A stretch of 64,000 bases of DNA from Escherichia phage dw-ec. Positions within the stretch are counted from its first letter, which is position 1. Every line of letters starts with the position of its first letter. A program made the translations under genes and the position numbers. Where the stretch lies: sequence record OL739525.1; one strand, 5' to 3'. Positions 11,881 through 54,250 of the stretch are shown piece after piece. The notes under the pieces were generated by a model. The model saw only the letters and a program-made list of their open reading frames with translations. It was not told where the DNA came from and did no database searches.

Positions 11881-11909
11881 GAGAATACAGCAATGGTTTA
11901 GGAGTGGTT

Positions 11910-12581
11910 ATGAAAAAGTTTGTTGTTTACAGTCGTCTTTCTAAACAGAAAAAAGGCGAGGCACAATATGGTATGGAGAGCCAAGAGAACGATATCCGTT
12001 ACTTCTTAGACTCTGTGCCTGATGCGGAAGTTATTGGTCAATTTTCTGAATACTATTCGGGTAAGGGCGATTGGAAGCAACGTAAGGAACTGGTTAAAGC
12101 GGTTGAAATGTGTAAAGCTACCGGAGCAACTTTATTGGTAGCTAAAGTTGACCGCTTGGGTCGTAACAACGCCTCCGTAGCAACTCTTCTAGAAATGATC
12201 GATGTTAAGATAGCCATTATGCCAGATGCAGATAAAATGGTTATACAGCTTCTGTCTGTTCTGGCTGAACAAGAGGTTAGAGGTATTGCTGATCGTATTA
12301 AAAAGGGTCTTGCTGTAGCAAAAAGCAAAGGTGTTTTATTAGGCAGTGCTAATCCTAAAACTGCCGCTGCACGTAGAAAAGGAAAAATGGAATACAACTC
12401 TGTTAAAGCAGACGCTTTTGCAGAGACATTTCGTGAACGTTTGGAGATCCTTAGAGATTTAAATACACCTTACAAAACTATTGCTGAAAAATTCAATAGT
12501 AAGAAAATAGCAACAGCACGTGGTGGTAAATGGGATGCTAAAACTGTTTCTCGTTTGTGTGCCAGACTGAACATTAAATAG
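11910..12581 (+). CDS. small serine recombinase (resolvase/invertase family)
   Basis: N-terminal catalytic motifs VVYSRLSKQ and VAKVDRLGRN typical of resolvase-type serine recombinases; basic C-terminal tail; RBS aggagtgg. Confidence 0.65.
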   Translation: MKKFVVYSRLSKQKKGEAQYGMESQENDIRYFLDSVPDAEVIGQFSEYYSGKGDWKQRKELVKAVEMCKATGATLLVAKVDRLGRNNASVATLLEMIDVKIAIMPDADKMVIQLLSVLAEQEVRGIADRIKKGLAVAKSKGVLLGSANPKTAAARRKGKMEYNSVKADAFAETFRERLEILRDLNTPYKTIAEKFNSKKIATARGGKWDAKTVSRLCARLNIK

Positions 12582-14972: not shown

Positions 14973-15392
14973 ATGTTAGGTAAGATCAAAGCCTTTTTCA
15001 AACGTATTATCGAAGGAAGTCCAACAGAAGGTGCATTAGGAAGATCCCTAACAGGAGAACCACTTGCCATAATTTCTATCAGTCGGCATGGTGGATATTC
15101 CATTCGACAAACACCTTTAGGTATAAAAGGTAGTATGCTTTCTTGGACAATATCTCAAGTTGGTGATAACAGGCTTGCAGCTATAGCGTTACTTCGTGGG
15201 GAGTATGACTACTGTTTATCAGCATCTTCTAAAAAGCACCTCATAGAGCACATTAGAGACAGAGTAGAAAGAGAAGGCGGATACTTCTTCGAAACTAAGA
15301 GAAACGAACAAGGAACTCTTGACTTCACTAAGGTTTACTGGGACAATCATACTCGTCAAACTGTTGAACAACTTCTGGAGGAAAGATGTTAA
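14973..15392 (+). CDS. hypothetical protein
   Basis: ORF immediately downstream of the G10 tract. Confidence 0.5.
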   Translation: MLGKIKAFFKRIIEGSPTEGALGRSLTGEPLAIISISRHGGYSIRQTPLGIKGSMLSWTISQVGDNRLAAIALLRGEYDYCLSASSKKHLIEHIRDRVEREGGYFFETKRNEQGTLDFTKVYWDNHTRQTVEQLLEERC

Positions 15393-15595
15393 AAGCTTTT
15401 GCTGTATACTCTACTGTAGGATTCTTTTATTGGATTATAGTTGTTGTTGGATGTTGGTTGGGTTCTTCTGTTGTGATGGGAGAATGGTTAACATACAATG
15501 TATTTGAATGGGATGTAGTTTGTAGATCATTACTTGTTATATGGACTGCTATTGTTTGTTGGATAACTGTTAGTCTAACATTAGATCTATATTGA
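15386..15595 (+). CDS. hypothetical membrane protein
   Basis: two hydrophobic segments (FFYWIIVVVGCWLG, LLVIWTAIVCWITVSL). Confidence 0.45.
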   Translation: MLKAFAVYSTVGFFYWIIVVVGCWLGSSVVMGEWLTYNVFEWDVVCRSLLVIWTAIVCWITVSLTLDLY

Positions 15596-15762
15596 TTAAT
15601 AGATGGTAGATAGATGATCATAGTTTATCTACCTTCACTTACGTTTCATACCTCACTATCGTGAGTAACATGAAACATTATTATATAGAAATCTACTACT
15701 CGCTATCGCTCGTAAACATATGTTTAGGGTACCATATTTTTTTGAAAAAGTCAATGCTGACT

Positions 15763-15859
15763 CACCTATCAATTATCCGTTTAAGATAAGTCTTACCTAT
15801 CAATCTAACTCTTAACTAGTATTGCACCTATAGTAAGACTATTCCTATAGTTATTAACC
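15763..15859. repeat. iteron-like direct repeats (CCTATCAAT x2, CCTATAGT x2)
   Basis: cacctatcaat 15763, tacctatcaat 15794, cacctatagt 15825, ttcctatagt 15843. Confidence 0.6.
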
Positions 15860-15888
15860 CTCTTCTTCTGTAGAATGTAATTAGATCC

Positions 15889-15918
15889 TTGACAAACTCA
15901 CAAAGCTTGTGTTACATT
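15889..15918 (+). promoter_or_regulatory. sigma70-like promoter
   Basis: TTGACA at 15889-15894, TACATT about 18 bp downstream; precedes the 15956 gene. Confidence 0.5.
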
Positions 15919-15955
15919 GTGTCTCACAGGTGAATAATACCAAACAGGAGGAAGA

Positions 15956-16171
15956 ATGAGTTCCAATTTTCTATACAAAGCAAAAGATTCACGAGATGGA
16001 GAGAACCATTGGTGGTTGATCACAGGAGATGGTGTTATCATCCTGCCGTGGGACGGAGAGACGAAAGTTCAAATACTAGAGAAAGTAAAAGGTGTTAGTT
16101 TTAATGTTAGTCATGACATAACAACTTTCAAAGCTTTTGCTATGAATCCTAGTCTTGTTGCTGAATGGTAA
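15956..16171 (+). CDS. hypothetical protein
   Basis: RBS acaggaggaagaATG. Confidence 0.5.
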   Translation: MSSNFLYKAKDSRDGENHWWLITGDGVIILPWDGETKVQILEKVKGVSFNVSHDITTFKAFAMNPSLVAEW

Positions 16172-16184
16172 TCCAGGAGAAAAT

Positions 16185-16403
16185 ATGACTAAAATGTATG
16201 CAGCCGTTGATAAGCTGGATGGGTCTGATTCTGTTTTTATTTTGAATAAAATGGGTGTCTTAGTTTATGCCCGAACTTCTCAAAACATAGAACACCAAGT
16301 GGAAGCAGCACAAATTTTAGAGCAAATAACCCCTCCATACCTATACTCAAATGTTGAGCGTTTTAACGATGCACTTGGTTTGACGTTAATAGCGGAATGG
16401 TAA
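16185..16403 (+). CDS. hypothetical protein
   Basis: ATG at 16185 after RBS ccaggagaaaat. Confidence 0.45.
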   Translation: MTKMYAAVDKLDGSDSVFILNKMGVLVYARTSQNIEHQVEAAQILEQITPPYLYSNVERFNDALGLTLIAEW

Positions 16404-16603
16404 TAATGGCGAAAATGTTGGAAATTGATAATGTCGTAACAATCACTACGTCCACACCTTGTTCTCCTATGCCTTGCCCCTATTGTGGTGGTGCAGGATA
16501 TGTTATGGCGGATGTAGGTCAAATTTACGAGTGTAACCCGTGCAAAACCACAGGTTATATCCAAATAGAATCAGAGGAGAAACACTATGAGCCAAAACAC
16601 TAA
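16397..16603 (+). CDS. hypothetical protein with CxxC...CxxC motif
   Basis: CPYCGG ... CNPCKTTG zinc-ribbon-like cysteines. Confidence 0.4.
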   Translation: MVIMAKMLEIDNVVTITTSTPCSPMPCPYCGGAGYVMADVGQIYECNPCKTTGYIQIESEEKHYEPKH

Positions 16604-18426: not shown

Positions 18427-18708
18427 ATGGAACTCGTTCAAGAACTGTATAATGCTTTAGGAGCAAAAGGAAAAGATTGGCCCGAACATGCGCTTATTGC
18501 TATAAGAGACTCCGATGGTGAGATTAAGTTTTCAAGCGTAAGTAAAGAGCACATCGTAGAAACAAAACTGGGTATTTACATGCGTGGAACTTATTGTTTA
18601 TTCAACACCAGAATGGTAGAAGCTCCTGTTATTGAAGATGGAACAAAAGATTGCCCCACAATCGTAACAAAAGCTGAATATGAGAAGTTTTTCTACGCTA
18701 AGGCTTGA
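18427..18708 (+). CDS. hypothetical protein
   Basis: RBS taaggaggtcatATG. Confidence 0.5.
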   Translation: MELVQELYNALGAKGKDWPEHALIAIRDSDGEIKFSSVSKEHIVETKLGIYMRGTYCLFNTRMVEAPVIEDGTKDCPTIVTKAEYEKFFYAKA

Positions 18709-18752
18709 CACAGAAACAATACTATAGGATAGTGATCCTATCGTAGCAATAG

Positions 18753-18775
18753 AACCCGCTTCGGCGGGTTTTTTC
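18753..18775 (+). terminator. intrinsic (rho-independent) terminator
   Basis: hairpin aacccgc-ttcg-gcgggtt followed by TTTTT. Confidence 0.75.
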
Positions 18776-18799
18776 ATATCTGTAGCAATAGGAGGTCGT

Positions 18800-53594: not shown

Positions 53595-54064
53595 TCTAGC
53601 CTCCTAAACGCGTCTCTGACGCACTTTTTATATATAAGATGATAAATCACCTTACCTAGTAAGTGAACTTGCTCTACGAGCCTCTTATGAAGCTTATGTT
53701 ATAGGCTATACTATTGCTACCTGTTTAAGCAAGGTTTTTGCACACAGAAAATAATTTTTAATTAAACTCTTGACTTTTGTGTTCGAAGTATGCTACCCTA
53801 GAAATCTATTAACGAGCGCAGCGAGTTAAGGTTTTAGGTTGTTGATGTAGTACTCTGTACTCCGTACTAGATTAATAATTATTAAATATTAATAATAAAT
53901 AATTATTAGATCTAACAAACAGGTACAGTGTATCAGAACTGGTACGTACAGATCAACTTCTATCAATTAAAAAAATAAAATAATAAATTATTATAAATAA
54001 TACTTGATCTATAGATCAGTATGAAGTACAGTACGTAACATCTTAACAAGAATGGAGGTGTGCA
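53595..54064. promoter_or_regulatory. AT-rich divergent control region with palindromes and clustered GTAC motifs
   Basis: separates the divergent gene blocks; palindromes ttaataattattaa (53871-53885) and gatctatagatc (54006-54017); nine GTAC within about 190 bp. Confidence 0.5.
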
Positions 54065-54250
54065 ATGATTAGTGAGAATCCGTGCAAATGGCATCATGTG
54101 CCTATTAAAGATTGTATGTCTTGTAATCCACGTTCTATTTATAACATTGCATCTTATGATGATGACAATGTGTTAGACGATGATGAAGGCTGGGAGGATT
54201 TGGATTGGACTGGTTATGAAACCAAAAAGGATAAAATTATTCCTAGTTGA
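54065..54250 (+). CDS. hypothetical protein
   Basis: RBS aatggaggtgtgcaATG. Confidence 0.45.
   Translation: MISENPCKWHHVPIKDCMSCNPRSIYNIASYDDDNVLDDDEGWEDLDWTGYETKKDKIIPS

Follow-up and report, generated by a model that had tools for sequence, protein, structure and literature searches.

A putative compound transcription-control region in a 360-bp early spacer of a Phapecoctavirus

The 360-bp spacer at 15596-15955, set between the small plus-strand ORFs 15386-15595 and 15956-16171, is proposed to be a compound transcription-control region in the early part of the Phapecoctavirus genome, a reading that is given a probability of about 0.55 and in which the functions of all spacer elements are inferred from sequence. 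The window, a 64,000-nt stretch of Escherichia phage dw-ec (OL739525.1), has 100% identity to phage ETEC-TG (Phapecoctavirus). The analysis established how well the following elements are conserved, in how many copies they occur, how they lie relative to genes and which hairpins they could form:

15605-15633, unstranded: hairpin H3, GGTAGATA (15605-15612) and TATCTACC (15626-15633) around a 13-nt loop
15641-15757, minus: conserved cassette, 2 of 117 sites variable among six close relatives
15643-15676, minus: hairpin H2, outer GTTTCAT (15643-15649)/ATGAAAC (15670-15676), inner CTCAC-TATC-GTGAG (15652-15665) with a 4-nt loop
15699-15712, minus: box CGAGCGATAGCGAG, containing GCGATAGC, spanning roughly +8 to +21 of the predicted RNA
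15714-15725, minus: palindrome H0, AAACATATGTTT, between the -10 and the box and spanning the predicted start at ~15719
15726-15754, minus: predicted leftward sigma-70-type promoter, -35 TTGACT (15754-15749), 17-nt spacer, TG (15734-15733), -10 TACCCT (15731-15726), then AA
15761-15773, plus: repeat copy 1, CTCACCTATCAAT, core CCTATCAAT at 15765-15773, 10 nt beyond the leftward -35
15792-15804, plus: repeat copy 2, CTTACCTATCAAT, 31 nt from copy 1, core CCTATCAAT at 15796-15804
15827-15834 and 15844-15851, plus: repeat copies 3 and 4, CCTATAGT, with three variable sites inside
15889-15918, plus: predicted rightward sigma-70 promoter, TTGACA (15889-15894), 18-nt spacer with TG, (TGt)TACATT (15913-15918)
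53770-53825, plus: cassette C, TTGACT (53770-53775), 18-nt spacer, TGc, TACCCT (53794-53799), box CGAGCGCAGCGAG (53813-53825)

The predicted leftward promoter cassette and its setting

The spacer is only slightly AT-rich, with a GC content of 0.33 (0.29-0.33 in its sub-segments) against 0.384 for the whole window; the AT-richness described in an earlier note on this DNA holds for overall composition but does not extend to AT-only runs of at least 12 nt, of which the window has 35 and the spacer none. No exact DnaA or IHF box lies in the spacer, and one-mismatch matches occur at background frequency. The neighbouring genes encode proteins of 69-149 aa that belong to function-unknown PHROGs and carry no significant Pfam domain, and no initiator-like gene of the Rep or O type is found among them. 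A PDB sequence search with the neighbouring 71-aa protein gave no match, and a search of IMG/VR for relatives via proteins retrieved none. No Rfam family matches the spacer at gathering or permissive thresholds; the gathering-threshold matches in the whole window are tRNAs only, the matches in 15500-16000 all have E > 2 and are to eukaryotic snoRNA models, and a tRNA/tmRNA scan placed nothing within the spacer. The small CDSs annotated inside the spacer in several GenBank records are probably spurious. Neither the annotated 40-aa ORF from 15670 nor the 31-aa ORF from 15720 has an SD, and the ATG of the former meets a stop after 2 codons in phiWec190, while Tr1 and PD06 have lost the start or frame of the latter.

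On the minus strand the conserved cassette takes the form TTGACT-17 nt-TGg-TACCCTAA, which carries the pattern of a sigma-70 promoter with an extended -10 (a TTGACA-like -35, 17 ± 1 nt, TGn and TAnnnT). The -35 matches TTGACA at 5 of 6 positions, and the -10 matches TATAAT at only 3 of 6, which is why the promoter was missed by a consensus scan. Among 39 unique variants the spacer between the two hexamers is 17 nt long in 35 and 18 nt in 4, and across 26 diverse copies TTGAC, TG and TAnnnT are invariant or nearly so while the sequence between them varies. In 35 of 35 cassette-type matches a hexamer resembling a -35 is found at a distance of 17-18 nt, compared with ~3 of 70 other matches to the same search pattern, which did not itself include the -35. 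The copy at 15726-15754 scores 59 bits with model R1, and cassette C scores 50 bits. The invariant CCC of TACCCT and the AA that follows exceed what sigma-70 recognition needs, and something else may read them. Plus-strand promoters built on TATCAAT or TATAGT were rejected for wrong spacing or an unconserved -35, and sigma-54, sigma-32 and sigma-28 consensus sequences, judged by eye, did not fit.

In other genera a core of ~100 nt retains 79-87% identity, and the remaining spacer is unalignable there. The nested inverted repeats reported earlier, GTTTCAT/ATGAAAC around CTCAC-TATC-GTGAG at 15652-15665, are confirmed and form part of the leftward cassette. The earlier note had overlooked this combination of a putative minus-strand promoter with hairpins, the dominant conserved feature of the spacer.

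The ETEC-TG genome holds exactly three cassettes. The other two stand upstream of protein genes in matching orientation, with predicted starts near 53806 on the plus strand (cassette C) and near record position 142,345 on the minus strand; cassette C, whose position between divergent genes calls for a rightward promoter, is followed by a 240-nt AT-rich leader, with two 38-nt AT-only runs downstream, and then by ORF 54065-54250. The 15641-15757 copy points backward into the early operon, and no SD-led ORF of at least 25 aa occurs within 450 nt downstream of it. This backward, ORF-less arrangement persists in at least five lineages, among which the flanking genes differ. More than 25 unique relatives have an SD and ORF after the cassette, at +97 to +267 and on the same strand as the promoter; two of these contexts are divergent junctions that require a promoter. 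In phi92 the element is inverted relative to the query and reads into gp208. A co-oriented transcription unit is present for the two paralogous copies and for these relatives, whereas the 15641-15757 copy has only a hairpin-rich stretch.

Small integrative, integrase-linked islands (L023/L029 type) also carry the cassette, there at the head of an operon; if the present reading is true, this hints at a connection of the phages with possible satellite elements. Neither the cassette nor the island leader had a BLAST match in 5,426 E. coli genomes. About two thirds of the matches listed by genome and metagenome pattern scans proved not to be cassettes, many of them being REP-like hairpins (GATTCC-TCGCTTCGCTC-GGAATGACA) of unrelated bacteria that share the box alone; with ~26 chance matches estimated for the genome scan, these non-cassette matches were set aside.

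Hairpins, repeats and the predicted rightward promoter

Palindrome H0 differs in sequence between cassettes, though a stem of 3-4 bp is nearly always kept (ACCC/GGGT, ACCT/AGGT, AACC/GGTT and others), and none of 2000 shuffles attained the stem length summed over 22 variants. Because H0 spans the predicted start, the full palindrome cannot form in RNA, which suggests that it works in the DNA or that transcription starts elsewhere. Within the box, GCGATAGC satisfies the GCGNNAGC mini-hairpin rule. The flanks of the box are invariant in all cassettes found, and its centre is only A, C, AT, AA or TA; the invariance of the flanks is partly forced by the pattern used to collect relatives, but copies found independently of the box likewise obey the mini-hairpin rule.

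A hairpin of 6-9 bp follows the box at a distance of 10-49 nt in all 11 backward-facing or island copies examined. The stems at the H2 position vary (TTTCATG/CATGAAA, TTCCATG/CATGGAA, ATAGTGT/ACACTAT and ATTGC/GCAAT), and formal covariation is weak, with 2 compensatory pairs in a MAFFT alignment. RNAalifold, applied to 13 copies, recovered the box and the TTTCATG hairpin with little covariation, in part because MAFFT aligns stems by sequence. The predicted minus-strand RNA folds into three hairpins at -32.2 kcal/mol (z = -2.7), and the fold of the plus strand is no less significant (z = -3.8). In number rather than length, the stems of the spacer are unusual: the longest, of 8 bp, was reached by 28% of dinucleotide shuffles and is ordinary, and four stems of at least 7 bp per 360 bp were seen in 2.8% of shuffled sequences and in 2% of real windows of that length.

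Hairpin H3 begins 10 nt past the stop codon of ORF 15386-15595. The inverted repeat that forms it had been noted earlier with coordinates 2 nt to the right of the true ones (15605-15612 and 15626-15633). Its 8-bp stem contains 3 G-C pairs, neither strand has a real T-run, and a simple terminator scan gave no call; at the homologous place in phage ASO2A a rho-independent terminator is annotated (TransTermHP/WebGeSTer). In phiWec190 and L108 the pairing is kept via G-U on the plus strand only, which favours plus-strand use. H3 is terminator-like for the rightward early transcript, where it may act as a weak terminator, and it is probably also the end point of the leftward cassette RNA. A separate plus-strand terminator candidate, ending in TTAGGGTAGCATGTTTTTT, was rejected, as its variable segment does not co-vary with its invariant part and its T-run is lacking in L021, L023 and cassette C.

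All of the repeat elements listed in the earlier note are found in the sequence. Its four direct repeats, read there as iteron-like, are two unlike pairs, two 13-mers (CTYACCTATCAAT, spaced 31 nt, copies 1 and 2) and two 8-mers, with only CCTAT in common. The consensus proposed for them, CCTAT(C/A)(A/G)T, misfits both CCTATCAAT copies, and further copies of it show no enrichment, 7 being found in the window against 6 expected. The comparison with chance that the note had called for places repeats and stems modestly above it: a 13-mer repeat with one mismatch arose in 1.6% of shuffles and 3.4% of real windows, which is modestly unusual, and four same-strand CCTAT motifs in 100 bp (spacings of 31, 31 and 17 nt) have a Poisson expectation of ~7e-4 for the whole window. 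Another spacer, at 18721-18744, contains a similar inverted pair, CCTATAGT/CCTATCGT.

Within the spacer, conservation is lowest in the repeat zone, where 20 of 131 sites vary among six close relatives. Only the promoter-proximal CCTATCAAT holds its position across all backward-facing copies: copy 1, as CC[T/G]AT[T/C][A/G][A/T]T, keeps a constant offset throughout the 10 backward-facing cassettes listed, has 0 variable sites among the six close relatives and is accompanied in compact relatives by an inverted partner 8-12 nt away. This promoter-proximal copy is a candidate regulator-binding site. Copy 2 is kept in phiWec190 and has one variable site (15803) among close relatives, while copies 3 and 4, mutated in phage ukendt (CCCATAGT, CTTATGGT) and absent in phiWec190, are probably nonfunctional. 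The earlier suggestion of a binding array for a regulator is supported in part, in that copy 1, with its fixed position and inverted partner, has the look expected of such a site. Copies 2-4 are proposed to be lineage-specific duplications under little or no constraint.

At the other end of the spacer, the promoter sequence previously noticed at 15889 is confirmed as TTGACA-18-TACATT, with 10 of 12 consensus matches and a TG. It precedes ORF 15956-16171 (RBS AGGAGG at 15946-15951, ATG at 15956) and later genes, and at the equivalent place in phiWec190 a different promoter, TTGTAA-17-TATACT, can be read.

A proposed mechanism and its alternatives

From these arrangements we infer promoter activity, the start site, an RNA product and any protein binding as follows. 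Hairpin H3 would serve as a weak terminator for rightward early transcripts, and host sigma-70 would start leftward near 15719 from TTGACT-17-TGg-TACCCTAA. The leftward transcript would traverse the short palindrome, the box and the nested hairpin at 15643-15676, and its product would most likely be a structured non-coding RNA of ~115-120 nt that ends at or near 15605-15633; leakage past that point would give a longer antisense RNA over the upstream genes. With either outcome, the leftward promoter would collide with rightward read-through. A regulator of the leftward promoter may bind the CCTATCAAT located 10 nt past the -35, and TTGACA-18-TACATT at 15889 would restart rightward transcription for the following genes. 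The 15641-15757 copy is most likely to yield a short antisense or non-coding RNA. No target for such an RNA was found by complementarity of at least 14 nt within the phage genome, the maximum being 13 nt apart from the shared box.

One alternative treats the three cassettes as transcription-activated origins like those of T7 (promoters plus AT-rich DNA), T4 (oriF and oriG) or ColE1, at which an R-loop would form and the displaced non-template strand would fold into H0 and GCGNNAGC mini-hairpins that act as entry or priming signals for the T7-type primase-helicase of the phage. A mini-hairpin motif does lie on the non-template strand directly past the start in every copy, and such motifs occur at the primase-dependent initiation sites of G4, St-1 and alpha3 (PMC13037366). 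A palindrome placed over the start site also makes more sense as DNA, the backward copy has no gene to express, and among the genes of the phage are those for a primase-helicase and a Pol I-type polymerase, with no initiator annotated. The downstream sequence divides the copies: a promoter followed by an AT-rich region, as a transcription-primed origin would have, is found at cassette C, with its two 38-nt AT-only runs, but the backward copy lacks any AT-rich unwinding tract (GC 0.29-0.33, no AT-only run of at least 12 nt). Two of the three copies are fully accounted for as gene promoters, the cassette also heads an operon in the small integrative islands, and skew analysis of the related rV5 tracked only the direction of transcription (PMC3606486). 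These points leave origins of this kind improbable. A similarly low probability attaches to the proposal that the three TACCCTAA cassettes are, in place of ordinary promoters, replication-initiation or primosome-entry sites, in which the backward copy would be a pure origin and the islands would thereby be replicated or induced by an infecting phage. The idea that an iteron origin or a multi-site binding array is the spacer's main function, with the CCTAT repeats binding an initiator or early regulator, is very improbable. The CCTAT cluster is non-random, with a 31-bp phase for three of its copies; copy 1 holds its position and has an inverted partner in relatives, and the inverted pair at 18721-18744 is similar. 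But the repeats are short, of two kinds and confined to the most variable, fast-evolving part of the spacer, near relatives have lost copies 3 and 4, the motif is unenriched elsewhere in the window, and an AT-only tract, an exact DnaA or IHF box and an initiator-like neighbour are all absent.

Two further readings concern the backward cassette itself. It could be a relic of the recombination by which conserved promoter cassettes, such as the PeSL elements of T4-type phages, are exchanged, and have lost its gene and any function, as might be supposed from the occurrence of the cassette in three contexts per genome and in integrative islands, from the variation of the genes flanking the backward copy by lineage, and from the precedent of PeSL elements as mobile regulatory cassettes (PMC4122927). 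A relic would be expected to decay, however, and no stretch of the spacer is better conserved than the cassette; at least five diverged lineages also retain the backward ORF-less copy, in every case accompanied by a hairpin and an upstream motif. The relic reading is considered unlikely. Alternatively, the core could work in the plus-strand early transcript, with its hairpins used for termination, processing or stability and the promoter-like match of this copy a coincidence. The plus-strand fold (z = -3.8) agrees with this, as do the H3 variants that pair via G-U on that strand only and an H0 variant that reads C(UUCG)G there, and compact relatives lack a separate promoter for the downstream gene, so that plus-strand RNA must traverse the cassette. 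The T-run after TTAGGGTAGCAT, however, is missing in several cassettes, the plus-equivalent strand is antisense to the following gene in the other two contexts, no Rfam family matches, and the invariant positions are exactly those of sigma-70 contact on the minus strand, and a plus-strand role of this kind is considered unlikely.

If the preferred reading of a compound transcription-control region is true, a phage small or antisense RNA is predicted and a handle on the control of early genes is gained. Although Phapecoctavirus, Justusliebigvirus and related phages are widely isolated for therapy, no mapped signals for their transcription or replication are known, and the three-copy, cross-genus promoter-leader cassette provides concrete sites for testing. 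Literature searches found no transcription map of this phage group and nothing relevant on the box sequence.

Comparison with known systems

The nut sites of lambda and the put sites of HK022 are promoter-proximal RNA elements of lambdoid phages. The cassette resembles them as a structured, conserved sequence placed just past a few early promoters, two or three per genome, but it has no sequence similarity to them and no Rfam match, and the hairpin nearest its promoter overlaps the start site. Iteron origins include lambda ori, P1 oriR and plasmid oriV, with which the spacer shares phased direct repeats near a promoter; it does not have their iteron unit length, copy identity, AT-rich tract, host-factor boxes or linked initiator, and three or more near-identical direct repeats of ~17-22 bp are not found in it.

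In T4-type phages, PeSL elements consist of a terminator stem-loop followed by a promoter, both in gene direction, and occur in dozens of copies (PMC2839356, PMC4122927). The spacer is like them in combining a short, conserved host-type early promoter with stem-loops, repeated amid small variable ORFs. Unlike in PeSL elements, the promoter of the cassette comes first and the hairpins would be transcribed, there are three copies and one of them is inverted; the rightward hairpin and promoter of the spacer lie ~255 nt apart, and order and strand in the cassette are opposite to the PeSL layout.

DNA mini-hairpins of the form GCGNAGC or GCGNNAGC are known from the complementary-strand origins of G4, St-1 and alpha3 and from the promoters of the N4 virion RNA polymerase (PMC13037366). 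The box variants GCGATAGC, GCGAAGC, GCGCAGC, GCGAAAGC and GCGTAAGC all obey this rule, and an initiation site, here a predicted one, adjoins them. The mini-hairpins of those systems function on single-stranded DNA, together with a primase or the N4 polymerase, and the invariant flanks of the box, CGA...GAG, exceed the rule.

The predicted leftward promoter resembles E. coli sigma-70 promoters of the extended -10 type, which serve early genes of lytic coliphages; it shares with them TTGACT, a spacing of 17-18 nt, TG at -15/-14, T-12, A-11 and T-7. Host-type promoters are reported to number 33 in rV5, and 11 of these have an extended -10 (PMC3606486). The cassette stands upstream of genes in two of its three copies. 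It differs from extended -10 promoters in the invariant CCC inside its -10 and the AA after it, in the palindrome and box placed past the start, and in its 15641-15757 copy, which opposes its neighbours and leads no gene.

Setting and conservation of the spacer

The window and Escherichia phage ETEC-TG (OR786310.1; Phapecoctavirus, Stephanstirmvirinae) share 100% identity, with window position x corresponding to x + 11,791 of that record. The 360-bp intergenic spacer at 15596-15955 is located within an extended series of small, rightward early genes, and both flanking products fall into PHROGs of unknown function and contain no Pfam domain:

15386-15595, rightward: upstream ORF, 69 aa, hydrophobic, with a strong SD
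15956-16171, rightward: downstream ORF, 71 aa

The downstream ORF (phrog_16110) and ORF 16185-16403 (phrog_24460, also matching phrog_16110 at E = 5e-4) are tandem paralogous small genes, homologues of which, carrying an N-terminal LYKA(V/K)D motif, adjoin the backward-facing cassette described below in most lineages. The 68-aa protein encoded at 16397-16603 is named 'DNA ligase' in several records, a doubtful name; it matches only a short PHROG and weak, sub-threshold zinc-ribbon-type Pfam models. The ORF at 11904-12581, 3 kb upstream of the spacer, is a DNA invertase (serine recombinase) according to the ETEC-TG annotation, and no link between it and the spacer repeats was found.

A BLAST search with the spacer as query, covering 50,697 phage records, returned full-length matches in about 64 records of Phapecoctavirus, with identities of 94-100%. 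Outside these, retention is confined to roughly 100 nt (about 15641-15765), a core with identities of 83-87% in the phiWec190 group, 85% across 60 nt in Citrobacter phage Tr1, and 79-82% among some 56 phi92-like phages. The phi92 copy of this core is inverted with respect to the adjacent genes.

Variable sites among six close relatives
Core cassette: 2/117
First hairpin: 1/45
CCTAT repeat zone: 20/131
Flanking ORFs: 2-5%

The repeats thus occupy the least constrained DNA of the spacer, and the nested hairpin is part of its most constrained segment.

Anatomy and copies of the cassette

Cassette copies were gathered by sequence-pattern searches of IMG/VR, of GTDB genomes and of JGI metagenomes, and about 40 unique variants remained once chance and REP-like matches had been discarded. 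All share one order, read on the window minus strand: a -35, a spacer, (A/G)TG(C/G), TACCCTAA, 7-14 variable nt, and a conserved box, CGAGCG-N(1-2)-AGCGAG. The -35 is TTGACT (TTTACT in one clade) and is separated from the -10 by 17 nt in 35 variants and 18 nt in 4, with varying sequence. This hexamer, which had been left out of the search pattern, is present in 35/35 cassette-type matches vs about 3/70 other matches. The invariant positions are sigma-70 contacts (-35, TG at -15/-14, T-12, A-11, T-7) together with CCC and AA, and the cassette, judged by its sequence, has the form of an extended -10 host promoter.

Downstream of TACCCT, the variable segment almost always includes a 3-4 bp palindrome whose sequence differs between copies (AAAC/GTTT, ACCC/GGGT, ACCT/AGGT, AACC/GGTT, and others), and the summed stem length is matched by 0/2000 shuffles. 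The box centre is limited to A, C, AT, AA, or TA, so that GCGNAGC or GCGNNAGC is present in every box; this is the 'mini-hairpin' motif covered by a review (PMC13037366). Invariance of the box flanks arises partly by construction, because several gathering patterns fixed them; copies gathered independently of the box show a concordant one. About two thirds of the listed genome and metagenome scan matches are not cassettes, and many of these are REP-like hairpins of unrelated bacteria with the same GAGCG-N-AGCGAG box as their loop, which supports the idea that the box folds. TTAGGGTA stands at a varying distance from these hairpins; the genome scan was estimated to contain about 26 chance matches, and the co-occurrence of TTAGGGTA with the box in the non-cassette matches was treated as chance. 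Such hairpins (e.g., GATTCC-TCGCTTCGCTC-GGAATGACA) are found in Bacteroidota, Acidobacteriota, Alphaproteobacteria, and others (L031, L039-L047, L052, L057, and many metagenome loci), and Desulfovibrio cuneatus carries seven copies of a related unit.

A sequence-only model trained on 26 diverse cassette copies identified exactly three in the ETEC-TG genome:

Window 15697-15758, minus: copy in the spacer
Window 53764-53827, plus: cassette C
Record 142,321-142,385, minus: third copy

Cassette C lies at a divergent gene junction and is followed by a 240-nt AT-rich leader, an SD-led, Cys-rich 61-aa ORF, and a tRNA cluster; the leader (within 53764-54064) has a GC of 0.26 and two 38-nt AT-only runs (53871-53908 and 53965-54002). 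An SD-led 65-aa ORF begins at +150 of the third copy. In >25 relatives, the cassette precedes an SD-led gene on the promoter strand, encoding either a phi92 gp208-type small membrane protein or an acidic 70-aa protein followed by one of about 297 aa, and these gene-leading contexts are as would be expected for a promoter with a leader. Small CDSs annotated at 15670-15789 and 15720-15815 in phAPEC8, ASO2A, BI-EHEC, and ETEC-TG overlap the spacer cassette, lack an SD, are unconserved, and are probably spurious calls; the 31-aa CDS0284 (record 142192-142287), over the leader of the third copy, looks spurious on the same grounds.

The spacer copy belongs to a third class, type B, which opposes its neighbouring genes and has no SD-led ORF of at least 25 aa within 450 nt. 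Type B is retained in at least five lineages (ETEC-TG, phiWec190, Tr1, the phi92-like PD06, and one metagenome-only clade). In each type-B copy, a 6-9 bp hairpin of lineage-dependent stem sequence stands 10-27 nt past the box, followed by a longer stem that directly adjoins the upstream gene's stop codon; covariation in the hairpin is thin (2 compensatory pairs in a MAFFT alignment). The predicted minus-strand RNA from about 15719 to about 15600 forms three hairpins (-32.2 kcal/mol, z = -2.7), and the plus strand folds comparably (z = -3.8), so that folding does not decide the strand.

Repeats, proposed transcription control, and the origin question

An earlier note had described the spacer as iterons, AT-rich DNA, and a promoter, resembling an origin or a regulator-binding array. 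All of the elements that it listed are found, the first inverted repeat 2 nt to the left of its reported place (15605-15612/15626-15633). Compared with 500 dinucleotide shuffles and 354 real 360-bp windows, the longest stem is not exceptional (P about 0.25), the four stems of at least 7 bp are unusual (P about 0.02-0.03), and the 13-mer repeat CTYACCTATCAAT, at a spacing of 31 nt, is modestly so (P about 0.016-0.03). Four CCTAT units on one strand within 100 bp (spacings 31, 31, and 17 nt) have an expectation of about 7e-4 for the window; these four supposed iterons are actually two distinct pairs, and a search of the window for further copies of the degenerate consensus CCTAT(C/A)(A/G)T gave no enrichment.

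In every type-B copy, CC(T/G)AT(T/C)(A/G)(A/T)T stands exactly 10 nt past the -35. For most of the compact relatives, it is followed after 8-12 nt by an inverted partner (such as TTGATAGG), which directly precedes the next gene's RBS; the gene in question is usually homologous to ORF 15956-16171. The Phapecoctavirus stretch is, from sequence, an expanded form, with a direct second copy at 31 nt and two CCTATAGT units gained, and the downstream gene has gained its own predicted promoter at 15889. Among close relatives, copy 1 (15761-15773) is without variation, copy 2 (15792-15804) has one variable site, and copies 3 and 4 (15827-15834, 15844-15851) have three in total, are mutated in ukendt, and are missing from phiWec190. 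This pattern makes copy 1, and perhaps copy 2, a reasonable candidate regulator site; the array in its entirety is not one. In another spacer (18705-18776), TTGACA-17-GATAGT overlaps the stop codon of the upstream ORF and is followed by an inverted pair, ACTATAGG-N8-CCTATCGT, sharing a half-site with copies 3 and 4. Then comes a strong terminator (CCCGCTTCGGCGGG and a T-run). Of the seven CCTATMRT sites in the window, four fall in copies 3 and 4 and this pair.

We slightly favor, at a probability of about 0.55, a model in which the spacer combines four transcription control elements. A weak terminator would act on the rightward early RNA, and a backward-facing sigma-70 promoter cassette would yield either a short, structured RNA or one antisense to the upstream genes, and would counter read-through; a probable regulator site would lie directly upstream of this promoter, and a restart promoter would serve the downstream genes. 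Counting against this model are the atypical, invariant -10, a palindrome spanning the predicted start site, and the weakness of the terminator. The spacer shows none of the tested defining features of an iteron origin (repeat length and identity, AT-rich tract, DnaA/IHF boxes, linked initiator gene): the DNA is mildly AT-rich (GC 0.33 vs 0.384 in the window) with zero AT-only runs of at least 12, no exact DnaA or IHF boxes were found in the spacer, and no linked initiator gene was found among the neighbouring ORFs. Transcription-primed initiation at the cassettes, in which the mini-hairpins would act on the strand that is displaced, is an alternative of low probability; its best candidate is cassette C, which precedes two 38-nt AT-only runs, whereas the spacer copy is a poorer one, and the region 53764-54064 looks more origin-like than the spacer.

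Related elements and known systems

In small integrative islands, one each from an IMG/VR contig, a metagenome contig, and a Scandinavium MAG (L023 4700-4770, L129 860-935, L029 5330-5400), the cassette also lies immediately behind a tyrosine integrase. An ORF-free stretch of 600-900 nt separates it there from an operon for two unknown proteins, an endonuclease VII-like protein, and a DUF5906 helicase. The islands carry HTH and resolvase genes as well, and such an island may be a phage satellite borrowing the promoter type of the phage. An unrelated small viral contig (L013/L014, IMG/VR contigs of 5 and 16 kb) contains TTGAAT-17-TGgTACCCTAA without a box, preceded by three tandem 21-nt repeats (ATTAGGTATAGGTACCCAATG).

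The region has no Rfam match, and no promoter or origin maps for these phages were found in the literature; for rV5, host-type promoters were predicted and the origin could not be placed (PMC3606486). Among known systems, the PeSL promoter/stem-loop cassettes of T4-type phages (PMC4122927) come closest, and the spacer cassette differs from them in order, orientation, and copy number. It is read here as a promoter-leader cassette, one member of which is putatively antisense and non-coding.
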